Shown here piece by piece: positions 11,958-35,830 of a stretch of DNA of 64,000 bases (within the stretch, counting starts at the first letter, position 1; every line of letters starts with the position of its first letter). The stretch lies in IMG/VR virus record IMGVR_UViG_2711768037_000005, positions 1 through 64,000 of that record; one strand, written 5' to 3'. This DNA is from a virus (lineage: Duplodnaviria > Heunggongvirae > Uroviricota > Caudoviricetes). The translations under genes and the position numbers were made by a program. The notes beneath the pieces were generated by a model. That model worked only from the letters and a program-made list of their open reading frames with translations, was not told where the DNA came from and searched no databases.

Positions 11958-12029
11958 GATGGTGTAGCTCAGCGGTAGAGCAGTTGGCTGTTAACCAACT
12001 GGTCGGTGGTTCGAATCCACCCACCATCG
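11958..12029 (+). tRNA. tRNA-Asn (anticodon GTT)
   Basis: Acceptor GATGGTG/CACCATC, D-arm TAGCTCAGCGGTAGAGCA, anticodon loop CTGTTAA, T-loop GGTGGTTCGAATCCACC, CCA encoded. Confidence 0.8.
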
Positions 12030-12037
12030 CCAATTTA

Positions 12038-12121
12038 GGGGAGTTAGTCCGTAGAGGTAGCGGTGTAGACTGTAAATCTACTGTCATGGCGACTCGGGTG
12101 GTTCGACTCCATCACTCCCCA
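12038..12121 (+). tRNA. tRNA-Tyr (anticodon GTA), long variable arm
   Basis: Acceptor GGGGAGT/ACTCCCC, anticodon stem-loop GTAGA-CTGTAAA-TCTAC, long variable arm, T-loop TTCGACT, CCA encoded. Confidence 0.75.
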
Positions 12122-12128
12122 CCAAATT

Positions 12129-12201
12129 GCCGGTTTAGCTCAGTTGGTAGAGCGGCTGCCTTGTAAGCAGGATGTCAGCGGTTCGAGTCCGTTAACCGGC
12201 A
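12129..12201 (+). tRNA. tRNA-Thr (anticodon TGT)
   Basis: Acceptor GCCGGTT/AACCGGC, D-arm TAGCTCAGTTGGTAGAGC, anticodon loop CTTGTAA, T-loop GGTTCGAGTCC, CCA encoded. Confidence 0.75.
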
Positions 12202-32642: not shown

Positions 32643-32978
32643 ATGAAGGCCATCCCATTCGCGCTGTTGTTCCTTTCTTCGATCGTTGTGGCCGACACCA
32701 CTGTTTATCAGTGTGAAATGTCTGTAGCCGACGTTAAGAATGGCGCTCTTACCGACGTCATAAAAGCACCATATGGAGCGATGGTCGTAGACAGCGGCGA
32801 CCAGTTCTATGTTGTGCGTGACGATCGAGTATTGTCATCCCCATATCTCACAAACCGTAATGGCAAATTAACCGGCGTCGGAGAAGACCACTTCGTATAC
32901 AACAAATACAAGGGCTTCTATGGCGTTCACGCTTCTCAGCAAAGCTACCTTTTCGATGACTGCAAGGAGGTTGGATAA
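32643..32978 (+). CDS. hypothetical secreted protein
   Basis: N-terminal signal-like MKAIPFALLFLSSIVVA. Confidence 0.4.
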   Translation: MKAIPFALLFLSSIVVADTTVYQCEMSVADVKNGALTDVIKAPYGAMVVDSGDQFYVVRDDRVLSSPYLTNRNGKLTGVGEDHFVYNKYKGFYGVHASQQSYLFDDCKEVG

Positions 32979-33190
32979 TGGCATTAACACTGGCAGGTCT
33001 GGAAATCGAGAAAACAAGCGGATACTGGCGTGCTAAGGGTTTCAAGCAGCCTGGCATTCTTGAGCGTCTGGAACGTGAAGATGGGTATATCGTCCACCAG
33101 CGGCGTGAATGGCGTATGTACGATCCAGAAACAGGAAAACTGACTACAAAAGCCGGAACACTTTGGGGTCTGTTGAAGAAAATACACTAA
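32978..33190 (+). CDS. hypothetical protein
   Basis: ORF track; ATGA overlap with upstream gene. Confidence 0.3.
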   Translation: MALTLAGLEIEKTSGYWRAKGFKQPGILERLEREDGYIVHQRREWRMYDPETGKLTTKAGTLWGLLKKIH

Positions 33191-33237
33191 ATGCAAACTG
33201 ACTGCGGCACGTTCCGCAGTCATATTTCATAGTCGTC

Positions 33238-33770
33238 ACCGCTGACAGCATACACAATCAACTGCCGCTGATAGCATATCGAGAGTCTATCTCACCGCTC
33301 ACAGCATACTTTACTCGATTTTTTACCGCTGACAGCATACTTAAGACATTGCATGAATAATGTGTACCGGTATGGGTATAACCAGAACAAAATTACCGCT
33401 GGCAGCATACGAAGGTCTGACATATGCCATTAATTACCGCTGATAGCATATCCAAACAAAAATTCCTCAATAAAACACCGCTGACAGCATACGTTCTATC
33501 AGGGAGCAGCAGGCAATAAATGCCTTTCACTACAAGCAATCAGCGCAATAGCAATAGAATGTTAGTGAGCGCAAACCTATATGGAATGCACTCTTCGAGG
33601 TTAGTAACCACTGGGGAGGTATGACAGAGCATTGAGTGGTGATAGATGATTTACCGCTCACAGCATACGTTCATCTCACTATACCGCTGGTAGCATATCT
33701 TTAACCGTTCACAGCATACATTTCAGAAAAATAGCCGCTGATAGCATACATTTCACCGCTGACAGCATAT
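33238..33770. repeat. iteron array downstream of rep: 12 copies of a 16-bp repeat ACCGCTGACAGCATAC (variants) in two clusters
   Basis: Copies start at 33238, 33264, 33294, 33325, 33395, 33436, 33477, 33653, 33683, 33704, 33734, 33755; irregular spacing; last copy overlaps the rep stop codon. Confidence 0.7.
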
Positions 33771-34864
33771 CAAAGCAGTTTGAGACTATTGGAAAGGATC
33801 TCAATCATCTTGATATTTTCAGGCGTCAAATTCTGCGAAAGTTCAGTTATCTTGTTGATAATGTTCTGTTTAGCATCAATTTCCCCGGCTTTCTCATCTG
33901 GTTTTTTGGGTTCGATGTCTTCAGGTTTTGGCGGTGCGACTTTAAGTTTTGGATTACGGCTGTGAATCTGGATATAGATCGACCGCCCTCGCTTAATCTC
34001 GCTGTATTCGAGATAGCCCAAATCTTGGAGAGCTTTTAAGCCGTTACGTATAGTCTGATTCTGCGAGCTTACATTCCTGCTACTCAAATTGAGTCGCGCA
34101 CGCAATCGAGCAAGCGATACCGGCGCAGGCTTGGTTGGAAGACTTTCGATGAAGGTGTACAGAGCCTGTGCTGTTTCTTTGCGTGGTAGCTTATTGATAA
34201 CCTTTAACTGCAAAAGAACCTTATGGTCAAAGCGATATAGTTCGGCCAGCTTCGGTTCTGCATAGAACACCACCGTATCTTTCTGCTCGTTGTAGTCCAC
34301 GCTATTGATGAGGTGCACCATCAGAAGCGAGATCTTGTTAGAGCCGTCGACGTTCTTTTCTTCATACGTTCTCTGGAAAGACAGAGTTGTACGCATGATC
34401 TTCAAAAGACTGTTTGTAAGCCGGTCGCGGAGTGTTTTGCGGATCTGTGACGATGGATAGCCACAAAACTTCGCAAATTTCGTGATGCTTAACTCGACAC
34501 GACCATTAGGTTCGCCGTATTCTGCCAGCGAACGCACAACGCCCACCCACGTTTTGAAATCATGATCCATGTCCAGGCGAGGACCGGTTATCTTGATATC
34601 GGAATAGCCTTCAGAACGGGCTACTTCGAGCTGGACAAGCTCCTTTGAAGCATCGATCTCATTTGGCTTGTTACGTTTACTGTATTTTGTTCCCTTAAGC
34701 GTGGGGACGAACAACCCCAGTCGCATCAACGCAATTGGTTGGACTGTATTGTTGCTATTAGGGACAAGTTCCCCTGTGTACAATTCAAGGGAACCTTCTT
34801 CAAAGTTGTCGATGTTATCTTCTACTTCTTTGTTATTTTTACCTTTTTTATTTTTTGTGGACAT
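33770..34864 (-). CDS. iteron-binding replication initiator (Rep), putative
   Basis: Only large minus-strand gene; flanked on both sides by iteron arrays; start taken at Met of MSTKNKKGK because the longer ORF-track N-terminus runs into the upstream iterons. Confidence 0.65.
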   Translation of the reverse strand: MSTKNKKGKNNKEVEDNIDNFEEGSLELYTGELVPNSNNTVQPIALMRLGLFVPTLKGTKYSKRNKPNEIDASKELVQLEVARSEGYSDIKITGPRLDMDHDFKTWVGVVRSLAEYGEPNGRVELSITKFAKFCGYPSSQIRKTLRDRLTNSLLKIMRTTLSFQRTYEEKNVDGSNKISLLMVHLINSVDYNEQKDTVVFYAEPKLAELYRFDHKVLLQLKVINKLPRKETAQALYTFIESLPTKPAPVSLARLRARLNLSSRNVSSQNQTIRNGLKALQDLGYLEYSEIKRGRSIYIQIHSRNPKLKVAPPKPEDIEPKKPDEKAGEIDAKQNIINKITELSQNLTPENIKMIEILSNSLKLL

Positions 34865-34884
34865 GTGGACACCTTTGTCATTCA

Positions 34885-34986
34885 ACCGCTGACAGCATAC
34901 TTGATTTGCCGCTGACAGAATACCAAAAACAGTTGGCAGCATACGGTGAACCGCTGACAGACTATCAATTACCGCTGACAGCATAC
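34885..34986. repeat. iteron array upstream of rep (about 5 copies, one degenerate)
   Basis: ACCGCTGACAGCATAC at 34885 and 34971; variants at 34908, 34931 and 34950. Confidence 0.65.
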
Positions 34987-35017
34987 ATGAACATGGCTTC
35001 AGACCAGTCGTGGCGCG

Positions 35018-35102
35018 GCTTACAGCGATCGGGGATCTTATTTGATCTATACAAGGATCTATCTATGGATCTCTTTATTAGGATCTATCCTGTGGATATG
35101 TG
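35018..35102. promoter_or_regulatory. candidate replication origin core: AT-rich stretch with clustered GATC sites and a DnaA-box-like sequence
   Basis: Six GATC within about 80 bp (CGATCGG, GGATCTT, TGATCTA, GGATCTA, GGATCTC, GGATCTA); TGTGGATAT resembles DnaA box TGTGGATAA; adjacent to iterons. Confidence 0.45.
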
Positions 35103-35185
35103 AATAATTAAAACAGGCATTTACTACCTTCGGCGCACCTGGTGGGTTATCGTTGCCTCGGCTAACAATCACAGAAAAATGACAT

Positions 35186-35830
35186 ATGGATCTAAAACGC
35201 ACGCGCTGGTTTCGTCGTCTTGAAGACGGCTCCTACACTATCGAATCAAATTCCAACCTGAATAAGCAGAAATTGCTTTGTGACATCTGCGGTATAGCGG
35301 CGAAGTGCCCGATCTACGAAACCAGAATTAAACTTGATAAGGCTGGTGTGAATTTTCATTTAAACAGTTGCATCAGGTACGTTCCATTACTCGCATTTCG
35401 TAAACCGATCATCGGATTGGATGCTCCCTACTTCAACACACTCCGTTCAGGTGTGACGTGGCGAGATCGTTTATCACCAGACAAGCTGATTTGCCTCGTA
35501 TCCGCAGACACAGGGAAAATCATCCGTTTTGGGAAAGTAGACAAGGTTTACTCAGGCCCAGTAGACGAAATGTTGCGGAAACACAGCCGGTTTAATCATC
35601 TCTGTATGGGTGGTGAGAAAATCGAGAAGGTAGAAGAAGTGATCCGCAAATCCTACGGACACTTTCTGACCAAAGATAGCCTGCTCACCGCAATCTACAT
35701 CAGACATGTAAAACGTGAGTTCGACCTCGAATACCACAGCGAAGAAGAGCTTAACCTTGTTGACCCACGTCCAAAAGCTGGCGTCATAAGCATAAACGCA
35801 GCGCGTAAAAAGCCCACTGACGCGCTGTAA
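35186..35830 (+). CDS. hypothetical protein
   Basis: ORF track. Confidence 0.5.
   Translation: MDLKRTRWFRRLEDGSYTIESNSNLNKQKLLCDICGIAAKCPIYETRIKLDKAGVNFHLNSCIRYVPLLAFRKPIIGLDAPYFNTLRSGVTWRDRLSPDKLICLVSADTGKIIRFGKVDKVYSGPVDEMLRKHSRFNHLCMGGEKIEKVEEVIRKSYGHFLTKDSLLTAIYIRHVKREFDLEYHSEEELNLVDPRPKAGVISINAARKKPTDAL

Follow-up and report, generated by a model that had tools for sequence, protein, structure and literature searches.

The segment 33199-35110 is very probably the plasmid-prophage replicon of an SSU5-like phage-plasmid, belonging to the P1 RepA/RepFIB iteron family and working by the mechanism proposed below. The window (the whole 64-kb stretch of DNA that was analysed) is ~99 % identical to Escherichia coli SSU5-like phage-plasmids of the p09EL50/pECOH89 type, for which the PlasmidFinder type is IncFIB(H89-PhagePlasmid) (PMC12838234). 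The original prediction, which likened the region to P1 oriR/repA/incA, is upheld by alignment with the P1 record K02380, with which the replicon is colinear. Rep is 46 % identical to P1 RepA over 278 aa in BLASTP (E 3e-86; tblastn 43.5 %, E 2e-64), and the core made up of DnaA boxes, GATC sites and GC-rich spacer matches the annotated P1 oriR at 68 % identity. In the iteron block, divergence has left 41 % identity to P1, near the background level. Judged by these alignments, the relation to the P1 replicon is true homology, beyond analogy; the replicon is of a known kind and its iteron sequence itself is new. The features are as follows.

33199..33222, both strands: palindromic GC-rich hairpin TGACTGCGGCACGTTCCGCAGTCA, terminator-like, 9-bp stem with 6 GC pairs
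33238..33492, plus strand: distal control cluster, 7 copies of ACCGCTGACAGCATAC in the orientation of the origin iterons, spacings 26, 30, 31, 70, 41 and 41
33493..33652: spacer between the control clusters
33653..33770, plus strand: proximal control cluster, 5 copies of ACCGCTGACAGCATAC, spacings 30, 21, 30 and 21
ATG 34864 to stop 33770-33772, minus strand: rep, 364 aa, RepA/RepFIB-family WH1-WH2 initiator (Pfam, phrog, BLASTP, AF2/Foldseek)
34870..34876, minus strand: Shine-Dalgarno sequence AAAGGTG
34885..34986, plus strand: origin iterons, 5 copies found with ACCGCTGACAGCATAC, equivalent to P1 incC
34926 to 34897, minus strand: candidate rep promoter TTGGTA-18-AAGTAT (consensus match), positional equivalent of the P1 repA promoter
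34968 to 34938, minus strand: candidate rep promoter TTGATA-19-TATGCT (consensus match)
34987..35026: GC-rich spacer, 57.5 % G+C, GATCGCTGTAAGCCGCGCCACG on the rep strand
35027..35110: six GATC (Dam) sites within AT-rich DNA, as repeats of the (A/T)AGATCC type (sequence, P1 alignment)
35091..35107, minus strand: tandem DnaA boxes TTATTCACA and ATATCCACA, overlapping by 1 base (P1 alignment)

Iterons

A search of the window with ACCGCTGACAGCATAC, allowing up to 3 mismatches, returned 18 matches against 0.33 expected, and 0 of 100 shuffles reached 18. Seventeen are on the plus strand in the same orientation, all of them inside the replicon region. The remaining match (12167, minus strand, 3 mismatches) sits in a tRNA and was rejected as chance. 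Conservation is confined to a 16-bp core of the iteron, beyond which the sequence shows just an A/T bias.

Twelve iterons, in clusters of 7 and 5, are found downstream of rep (33238-33770) and five upstream (34885-34986). The original prediction had a 16-bp repeat present about 12 times downstream and about 5 times upstream, with two downstream clusters about 160 bp apart. Both counts are borne out (17 copies versus 0.33 expected), and the gap is exactly 160 bp. The irregular spacing that it described applies to the downstream array but not to the upstream array, where the spacings are 23, 21, 21 and 21 bp and the iterons therefore all lie on one helix face.

Iterons in related replicons were surveyed at 84 family loci, mainly using a 650-bp iteron-search window together with hand-checked loci; a run with a 330-bp search was crude, and sometimes took GATC repeats or missed arrays. 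Iterons phased at 21-23 bp were the rule across the 84 loci, and at least four GATC sites were present within 80 bp upstream of rep in 76 of them. Each Rep clade has its own iteron, the Rep and iteron sequences co-varying by clade.

The rep gene and the Rep protein

The rep gene encodes 364 aa, rather than the 365 aa first predicted. In RefSeq, the start is placed at ATG 34984, which is located within an iteron, giving a protein of 404 aa. The Shine-Dalgarno sequence 5 nt before ATG 34864 supports the 364-aa start over the RefSeq call. The corresponding Met is the annotated start in many relatives, and rep of the phage PhiR41_1 is annotated at 1095 nt.

The profile search against Rep families suggested in the original prediction assigned the protein to a Rep family, with a match to Pfam Rep3_N (PF01051, WH1) at residues 118-239 (37.5 bits versus a cutoff of 22.4, E 3.9e-9). 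Rep also matched phrog_775 (E 5e-133), and an NCBIfam search gave no match. It is 48 % identical to SSU5 RepA (also PMC3999498), ~85 % identical to the Rep of Klebsiella phage-plasmids and ~50-55 % identical to proteins named RepFIB RepA or RepB family. A total of 477 relatives were recovered at E<=1e-5, and those named by their source are RepB-family initiator, RepA or RepFIB RepA.

The AF2 model of Rep (pLDDT 77-91 over residues 71-300) contains two tandem winged-helix domains. The top PDB matches found by Foldseek were RctB domains 2-3 (E 7e-8) and the RepE dimer 2z9o (8e-5), followed by a WH1 domain, the Rep-iteron complex 8aan, Pi 2nra and TrfA 9a0w, with TM-scores that were modest (0.4-0.5). 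By homology and predicted fold, Rep is a WH1-WH2 iteron-type initiator. The N-terminus (residues 1-41) is disordered and Lys-rich, and the C-terminal two-helix tail (331-363) is common to classical RepFIB proteins and missing from P1 RepA. In a phmmer search against PDB sequences, solved RepE included, Rep had no match, and its link to solved initiators is through fold comparison only.

The origin

The rep ATG is only 20 nt from the last origin iteron. A standard promoter scan of the minus strand within the iterons found no promoter. In a relaxed scan, the candidates inside the origin iterons were weak, agreeing with the consensus at 7-9 of 12 positions. The GC-rich spacer on the far side of the iterons is kept in P1, RCS47, JK004 and pJN2-26.

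The AT-rich stretch with six GATC sites noted in the original prediction was confirmed. All six are found in 59 bp (35027-35085), the sole place in the window with more than three GATC per 80 bp, and the G+C content of 35036-35110 is 29.3 % compared with a window mean of 45.6 %, within the lowest 2 % of 75-bp windows. The region 35027..35110 is presumed to be the unwinding element and the SeqA/Dam control region. Its counterpart in P1 oriR has four annotated Dam heptamers plus the further GATC.

The DnaA-box-like sequence of the original prediction, TGTGGATAT, is present at 35091-35099 (ATATCCACA in the list, 1 mismatch). However, single boxes of this quality are no evidence by themselves, as 67 9-mers with 1 mismatch were found in the window versus 66.7 expected, and a second box, a perfect TTATNCACA at 35099-35107 on the minus strand (TTATTCACA in the list), had been missed. 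As a lone DnaA box is at chance level, only the tandem layout and the alignment with P1 give it meaning; in that alignment, the two boxes coincide with the DnaA binding site annotated for P1 (K02380 729-746).

The predicted control array

The last iteron of the proximal cluster and the rep stop codon have one base in common. Twelve control iterons is at the upper end of the family range, and an array that is all-direct, bipartite and unlinked from parAB is unusual in the family. The all-direct array, the lack of a neighbouring parAB and the new iteron sequence are specific to this clade. As the control iterons are all direct, unlike those of P1 and most relatives in the 84-locus survey, the pairing geometry could differ from that of P1.

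The 160-bp spacer is found at 95-100 % identity in ~120 plasmids and is never annotated there. We have treated it as non-essential, because an Rfam search found no family, the RNA fold signal is weak (z-scores of -1.3 for the plus strand and -2.9 for the minus strand), the sequence is not conserved in the Klebsiella relative and an insertion is tolerated. In NZ_CP062914, a maintained plasmid, an insertion of the IS91 family in the spacer leaves the clusters ~1.9 kb apart with the distal cluster intact. The suggestion in the original prediction that the two-cluster layout matters for handcuffing is unsupported because of this insertion.

Other variation was found in the number of control iterons. 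In the PhiR41_1 phage, a deletion of 87 bp, exactly from iteron to iteron, removes three distal copies. Among the natural variants, the five origin iterons are constant and the control iterons number 12, 10, 9 or 8, or are split by IS91, as would be expected if the control locus were dispensable. For the FIB replicon, the downstream iterons were found to displace the plasmid by themselves, an effect that the upstream ones lack (PMC11983097). A further reading of this variation, which we consider rather unlikely, is that the array is a fast-evolving copy-number dial, where loss or gain of iterons raises or lowers the dosage of the phage-plasmid. If so, cargo such as blaCTX-M-15 would change in dosage and the lytic induction threshold would shift, and variation would be reversible and heteroresistance-like. 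A 2026 preprint on phage-plasmid heteroresistance, which is heavy on repA and copy number, may already cover this idea.

Genomic setting and maintenance

A phage replication and nucleotide-metabolism block that includes dnaE, nrdAB, thyA, a dam-like methyltransferase gene and rnhA surrounds the repA gene, which stands by itself on the minus strand at the centre of the block. As the element carries dnaE, a gene for a toprim protein and further replication genes, RepA/oriR may not be its only replication route. No second origin was identified within the 64-kb window. This position of repA and the single origin would suit dual use, in which lytic replication, too, would begin from the RepA/iteron origin upon induction, the downstream array being a switch that is then overridden. 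In N15, a linear phage-plasmid, one RepA serves both replication modes. However, the plasmid (oriR/repA) and lytic (oriL/repL) replication systems of P1 are separate, replicons of the handcuffing type serve to stop runaway replication and nothing in the sequence indicates a bypass. We therefore regard dual use as distinctly improbable.

The possibility that the Rep/iteron module is an inherited and inactive relic, with the element maintained by another system elsewhere, was also considered. F has a poorly functional FIB replicon beside others (PMC11983097), and many replication proteins are encoded by the element. Against this, the Rep ORF is intact and the replicon layout is kept, at 95-100 % identity, in ~120 plasmids from Escherichia, Shigella and Salmonella. 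In every plasmid record opened, rep_cluster_488 was the sole replicon typed. In the compared relatives, moreover, the number and phase of the origin iterons are kept while the spacers diverge. Inactivity is thus very improbable. That the repeats are only operator arrays, regulating rep and neighbouring phage genes with no role at an origin, is hardly credible. The iterons of the family do double as operator sites at the rep promoter (P1 annotation), but here the neighbouring AT-rich element, Dam cluster and DnaA boxes are homologous in nucleotide sequence to an origin that has been defined biochemically, and both sequence and fold mark the protein as an initiator.

The replicon type matched 188 PLSDB records, 181 of which are non-mobilizable, and the phage-plasmids of this family are ~110 kb in size and non-mobilizable. 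Some plasmids of this replicon type carry blaCTX-M-15 (PMC3999498, PMC12838234).

On the side away from rep, the control array is adjoined by small converging ORFs. The hairpin at 33199..33222 lies between the converging plus-strand operon (stop 33190) and the iteron array, which it probably shields from read-through. Pfam searches with the small ORFs on either side, among them the 214-aa neighbour, were uninformative. The control iterons are not followed directly by a parA-parB-parS set of the kind found in the P1-type linked rep-par module, and no par genes were found in the p09EL50 sequence examined around rep, which spans 49.5 kb (~29 kb to one side of rep and ~19 kb to the other). In pECOH89, parA and parB were reported at another location on the plasmid (PMC3999498).

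Proposed mechanism

For an active plasmid-prophage replicon of the P1 RepA/RepFIB family, we propose the following, largely by extension from P1 and FIB. Rep would bind the 16-bp iterons as a monomer. The origin would consist of the five phased iterons, the tandem DnaA boxes and the AT-rich GATC cluster, methylated by Dam, in a layout that is homologous to that of P1. As in P1, opening would be by Rep together with DnaA and would depend on Dam, with sequestration by SeqA after firing. As the candidate rep promoters are within the origin iterons, Rep would be expected to repress its own synthesis.

The 12 downstream iterons are predicted to control copy number and incompatibility, as the counterpart of P1 incA and of repeats E-K of FIB. 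They would titrate Rep and pair with the origin iterons in cis and in trans (handcuffing), and titration and handcuffing together would hold the replicon at a few copies per cell. In the sibling phage-plasmid Cyrano, a copy number of 5.5 per cell was measured (PMC9928086). Indirectly, this value and the sole typing of this replicon in the plasmid records fit the predicted autonomous, DnaA-dependent theta replication at low copy number. The iteron sequence is different from those of P1, p0111, SSU5 and classical FIB and should therefore define a separate incompatibility specificity.

Comparison with known replicons

P1 (IncY; oriR/incC, repA, incA; loci listed in PMC6906374) is likewise a phage-plasmid that carries its replicon. 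The order of DnaA boxes, GATC heptamers, GC-rich spacer, five iterons (at 21-22 bp in P1), rep and control iterons is the same, and the control iterons start at the rep stop in both, P1 incA (1866-2150) beginning at the repA stop (1866) as the proximal cluster does here. However, the iteron here, GTATGCTGTCAGCGGT, is unrelated to the P1 iteron GATGTGTGCTGGAGGG, by which IncY would be recognized, except for a common TGCTG. P1 has nine control iterons, six of them inverted, whereas the 12 here are all direct and in two clusters. Unlike in P1, parAB/parS do not follow the control array. Rep has ~12 extra N-terminal and ~55 extra C-terminal residues relative to P1 RepA, and the DnaA boxes found between the iterons and the rep start in P1 are absent here. 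An origin layout with five iterons at ~21 bp is found in P1, RCS47, JK004, pJN2-26 and most of the 84 loci.

In the RepFIB replicons of IncF plasmids (P307, F, pO157), rep also lies between upstream origin iterons and downstream control iterons. The C-terminal Rep tail is common to both, and the downstream block is the FIB incompatibility and control determinant (PMC11983097). The iterons differ, and the replicon here and IncFIB(AP001918) are compatible within one cell, as plasmids of the two types have been found together within the same strains (PMC12838234). The start codon is ATG with a good RBS here and CTG in classical FIB (PMC11983097), and the location is a phage genome here and a conjugative plasmid for RepFIB.

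SSU5, pHCM2 and pLF82 (Cyrano) are in the same phage-plasmid supergroup. The genomic slot in SSU5 is the same (214-aa ORF, origin, repA, iterons, cra-like gene), and the SSU5 group also has five iterons at 21 bp with downstream arrays. However, Rep identity is no more than 48 %, the iteron resembles AACCACTGTAGAGAGTAG, the SSU5 downstream array is of mixed orientation, with an extra upstream iteron group present, and the GATC cluster has partly degenerated (3 sites per 80 bp). The Klebsiella pKpn-type elements (pJN2-26, vB_KpnS_p4727) are closer, with Rep 85 % identical, the same iteron core GTATGCTGTCAGCGGT, five origin iterons and a control array that is all-direct and bipartite, as here. 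They differ in having 8-9 control iterons, an inter-cluster distance of 87 bp start-to-start and an unrelated spacer. Mini-F (RepE/ori2/incC) has an initiator of the same fold class (the 2z9o match) and the same logic of origin and downstream control iterons, but there is no sequence similarity to RepE detectable by phmmer and it belongs to a different Rep_3 subfamily.

Implications

The replicon type is often found in E. coli, Shigella and Salmonella of clinical and animal origin. Though the replicon raises no new biological question, the map shows that replicons with completely diverged Rep-iteron pairs have kept the host-factor half of the P1 origin in common. The map also defines the exact fragment with which such plasmids could be cured through incompatibility, the downstream array minus rep, following what was shown for FIB (PMC11983097). 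Being resolved to the base, it also corrects annotation, as the 404-aa Rep of RefSeq translates the origin iterons. One GenBank record mislabels the iterons as attL/attR.

Iteron arrays and origin

The replicon at approximately 33199-35110 is a member of the P1 RepA/RepFIB family. The 16-mer ACCGCTGACAGCATAC has 18 matches in the window with up to 3 mismatches allowed, compared to 0.33 expected, and none of 100 shuffled sequences reached 18. Seventeen are on the + strand inside this region, and the counts of 12 copies downstream of the rep gene (control iterons) and 5 upstream (origin iterons) agree with the original prediction, as does the 160 bp gap between the two downstream clusters. The irregular spacing that was also predicted applies to the downstream copies, but the upstream copies are regularly spaced. 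The conserved core of the iteron is 16 bp, with flanks that are merely A/T-biased. The 18th match (12167, minus strand, 3 mismatches) is inside a tRNA gene and is due to chance.

Features of the replicon and the flanking ORFs
32978-33190, +: 70 aa ORF, phrog_804, directly beyond the control array
33238-33492, +: distal control cluster, 7 iterons (spacings 26, 30, 31, 70, 41, 41)
33493-33652: inter-cluster gap, 160 bp
33653-33770, +: proximal control cluster, 5 iterons (spacings 30, 21, 30, 21), the last overlapping the rep stop codon
34926 to 34897: candidate rep promoter TTGGTA-18-AAGTAT, positional equivalent of the P1 repA promoter
34968 to 34938: candidate rep promoter TTGATA-19-TATGCT
34885-34986, +: origin iterons, 5 copies (spacings 23, 21, 21, 21)
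35186-35830, +: 214 aa ORF, phrog_2105, several Cys, divergent from rep and starting approximately 80 bp beyond the DnaA boxes

Beyond the upstream array, the AT-rich stretch with six GATC sites was recovered as predicted. The sites are at 35027-35085, and elsewhere in the window there are never more than 3 per 80 bp; the G+C content of 35036-35110 is 29 % (window mean 45.6 %), among the lowest 2 % of 75 bp windows. The DnaA-box-like sequence of the original prediction, TGTGGATAT, is present at 35091-35099. A single near-consensus box is statistically meaningless, as 67 were found in the window and 66.7 expected. However, this one adjoins a perfect TTATNCACA (35099-35107, minus strand) on the same strand, forming a tandem pair.

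The proposed resemblance to P1 oriR/repA/incA is borne out by the order of the elements. In the P1 replicon (GenBank accession number K02380), the DnaA site (729-746) is followed by four Dam sites (751-801), five incC iterons (846-949) that include the repA -35 and -10, repA (1006-1866) and incA (from 1866). On the rep strand, the window origin reads TTATTCACATATCCACA-GGATAGATCC...AGATCCATAGATAGATCC...GATCGCTGTAAGCCGCGCCACGACTGG and its P1 counterpart reads TTATCCACATTATCCACT-GGATAGATCC...AGATCCATATAGATCC...GATCGTTGCAGGCCGCGCCACGTCTGG, with the order the same and the sequence recognisable. In an alignment of six replicons (window, P1, RCS47, JK004, SSU5 and pJN2-26), the window and P1 share 68 % identity between the start of the DnaA boxes and the first iteron but 41 % in the iteron block; the host-factor half of the origin is thus conserved and the Rep-specific half replaced.

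The window replicon is nevertheless not an IncY (P1) replicon. Its clade has a new iteron sequence, unlike that of P1, the 12 control iterons are all direct and bipartite, and DnaA boxes are absent between the iterons and the start of rep. It also lacks the P1 arrangement of linked rep and par genes, parAB being unlinked. Existing annotation includes the Rep gene, and the replicon is covered by typing schemes. A literature search found no paper on the iterons and origin of this clade; for Klebsiella pKPHS1-type plasmids, which are also SSU5-like, four downstream iterons have been predicted (PMC6735626).

The Rep protein and its start

The rep ORF begins at ATG 34864 on the minus strand, with the Shine-Dalgarno sequence AAAGGTG 5 nt before it. 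Its position between the arrays is as predicted, but it encodes 364 aa rather than 365 aa. An HMM search against plasmid Rep families, proposed earlier as a check, supported its assignment as an initiator, with Pfam Rep3_N scoring 37.5 bits (cut-off 22.4); the match to phrog_775 has an E value of 5e-133. Rep shares 46 % identity with P1 RepA (278 residues, E 3e-86), 48 % with SSU5 RepA and approximately 85 % with the Klebsiella phage-plasmid Rep. A large protein database contained 477 relatives at E<=1e-5, and those approximately 50-55 % identical that carry a source name are labelled RepFIB RepA or RepB family initiators. In an AlphaFold model (29 sequences), pLDDT is 77-91 for residues 71-300, and residues 1-41 and 308-329 are disordered. 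The best PDB matches, all of them tandem winged-helix iteron initiators, are RctB domains 2-3, RepE, a WH1 domain, a Rep-iteron complex, Pi and TrfA. Classical RepFIB proteins also have the two-helix C-terminal tail, whereas P1 RepA lacks it.

The RefSeq protein is 404 aa, starting at ATG 34984. The additional 40 residues (MLSAV..SLSAV..MLPTV..ILSAA; 34865-34984, minus strand) result from in-frame translation of the five origin iterons, possible because the 21 bp period is a multiple of three (7 codons). ATG 34984 is inside an iteron, has no obvious ribosome-binding site and is upstream of both candidate promoters, and ATG 34864 with AAAGGTG is likely to be the true start. Many database relatives (including P0001, P0002, P0009 and P0025) carry the same artefactual extension.

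Distribution and neighbourhood

Approximately 70 plasmids match the 2 kb region at 99 % identity and approximately 166 at 95 % or more; they are mostly non-mobilizable, approximately 110 kb and from Escherichia, Shigella and Salmonella. The region also matches Escherichia coli phages PhiR41_1 and CMS-2020a. One representative, p09EL50 (E. coli O104:H4), has rep_cluster_488 as its sole MOB-suite replicon. The RepA of pECOH89 is identical to that of p09EL50 and 48 % identical to that of pLF82, and the plasmids in that study are phage-like, of the SSU5/pHCM2 kind (PMC3999498). Plasmids like pECOH89 are typed as IncFIB(H89-PhagePlasmid) (PMC12838234), and Pfeifer et al. assigned these elements to the SSU5 supergroup of phage-plasmids (PMC7969092). 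It is unlikely that the replicon is a relic, as the module is intact, highly conserved in >100 plasmids and, in each record opened, the only replicon typed.

In p09EL50 31500-81000 (window approximately 14500-64000), no other gene shares the strand of rep over approximately 47 kb, a co-directional block that extends from one edge of the region examined to the gene of a helix-turn-helix regulator approximately 17 kb away on the far side. Block products include DnaE, NrdA/NrdB, thymidylate synthase, DHFR, a phage N6-adenine methyltransferase, RNase HI, a 3'-5' exonuclease and an SbcCD-like ATPase/phosphoesterase pair. This replication and nucleotide-metabolism setting would suit an origin that also serves lytic replication, but P1 keeps its plasmid and lytic modes apart and there is no hint of a bypass here. 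Such dual use is improbable. Arrays acting solely as operators, with no origin function, are in practice excluded by the homology to P1 oriR.

The 214 aa ORF has no Pfam match, and its promoter must adjoin the unwinding region. SSU5 and pJN2-26 each have a 645 bp ORF on this side of the origin, and in pSTM_Phi a matching ORF is cut by the locus edge. The 70 aa ORF is annotated 'Cre-associated protein' in SSU5 and pJN2-26. Over the last 41 bp of the 70 aa ORF there is 100 % identity to part of phage Cyrano annotated 'P1 Cra protein'. Three adjacent tRNA genes were found at 11958-12201 (+; Rfam 75.5, 41.6 and 68.2 bits); the pECOH89 paper lists only two tRNAs, Thr and Asn.

Variation of the control array

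The 12-copy layout is identical in six Escherichia plasmids, including the window. Salmonella pSTM_Phi has 10 control copies, with a gap of approximately 175 bp as in the 12-copy layout, and pJN2-26 has 8. Relative to window 33238-33324, PhiR41_1 has an exact 87 bp deletion from iteron 1 to iteron 4 that removes 3 iterons and leaves 9. In all loci where the origin part was recovered, the 5-copy layout and its 21-23 bp phase are retained, though in a few relatives 1 or 2 origin copies fail the 3-mismatch cut-off. Such a pattern would be expected of an essential upstream set and a downstream set that serves as a tunable control locus.

The 160 bp spacer is 95-100 % conserved in approximately 120 plasmids and annotated in none. 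As minus-strand RNA, it folds somewhat better than shuffled sequences (z -2.86, 1 of 200) and could be the site of the rep terminator, yet an IS91-family insertion is tolerated there in NZ_CP062914 (1333-3046 of that locus), placing 5 and 7 iterons approximately 1.9 kb apart. The natural variants, this one included, argue that the spacer and exact two-cluster geometry are not critical, and the suggestion that the two-cluster layout underlies handcuffing is not sustained.

Replication and copy control

The general model of P1 replication comes from the work of Chattoraj, Austin and Wickner. If the replicon works as P1 and FIB do, Rep monomers activated by DnaK/DnaJ/GrpE would fill the five phased iterons and act with DnaA, bound to the tandem boxes, to open the AT-rich GATC region. 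Methylation by Dam would have to be complete, with hemimethylated sites sequestered by SeqA after firing; the element-encoded adenine methyltransferase could make methylation of this Dam-site-rich origin independent of the host. As the rep promoter would be within the origin iterons, Rep would repress itself. By titrating Rep and by pairing in cis and in trans with the origin iterons (handcuffing), the 12 downstream iterons would limit copy number and cause incompatibility. In a FIB replicon, the downstream block alone displaced a resident plasmid and the upstream block did not (PMC11983097), and the sibling phage-plasmid Cyrano/pLF82 has a copy number of 5.5 per cell (PMC9928086). With its distinct iteron, the replicon is predicted to be compatible with P1 (IncY), p0111, the pLF82 type and classical FIB; its presence alongside an IncFIB(AP001918) plasmid has been documented (PMC12838234).

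Family-wide survey

A one-genome-per-species scan yielded 80 loci encoding Rep relatives, and the set analysed, with P1, RCS47, JK004, SSU5, pJN2-26 and the window, was 84 loci in all. At least 4 GATC sites are within 80 bp upstream of rep in 76 of the 84, and arrays typically comprise 3-5 or more repeats, spaced at 21-23 bp or multiples thereof. Rep and iteron sequences co-vary, each Rep clade having its own iteron (e.g. ATAAGCTATAGT, AACCACTGTAG, GACTGCGGTATG and TGTTGACTATACGCGA; TGTGCTGGAGGG in P1). Downstream arrays normally mix direct and inverted copies, and arrays of at least 4 copies with none inverted were found only in the window's clade, namely the window (12), pJN2-26 (8-9) and Klebsiella sp. 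BIGb0407 (6).

In SSU5, an additional iteron-like repeat group (892-999 of the locus) is approximately 300 bp upstream of the five origin iterons. A second upstream group (spacings approximately 250-380 bp) is also present in many Pantoea, Rahnella and Yersinia relatives and absent from the window's clade. In Klebsiella phage pJN2-26 (GenBank accession number MZ779062), 20 bp sites at 1378-1397 and 2648-2667, the edges of the iteron arrays either side of rep, are labelled attR/attL. The labels are almost certainly a prophage-finder artefact produced by the direct repeats and, like the 404 aa RefSeq start, are worth correcting. In Cronobacter phage JK004 (GenBank accession number MZ188976), a P1-type RepA gene (1468-2328), annotated only as 'hypothetical protein', has P1-like iterons, ATGTGCGCTGGAGGG, on both sides.
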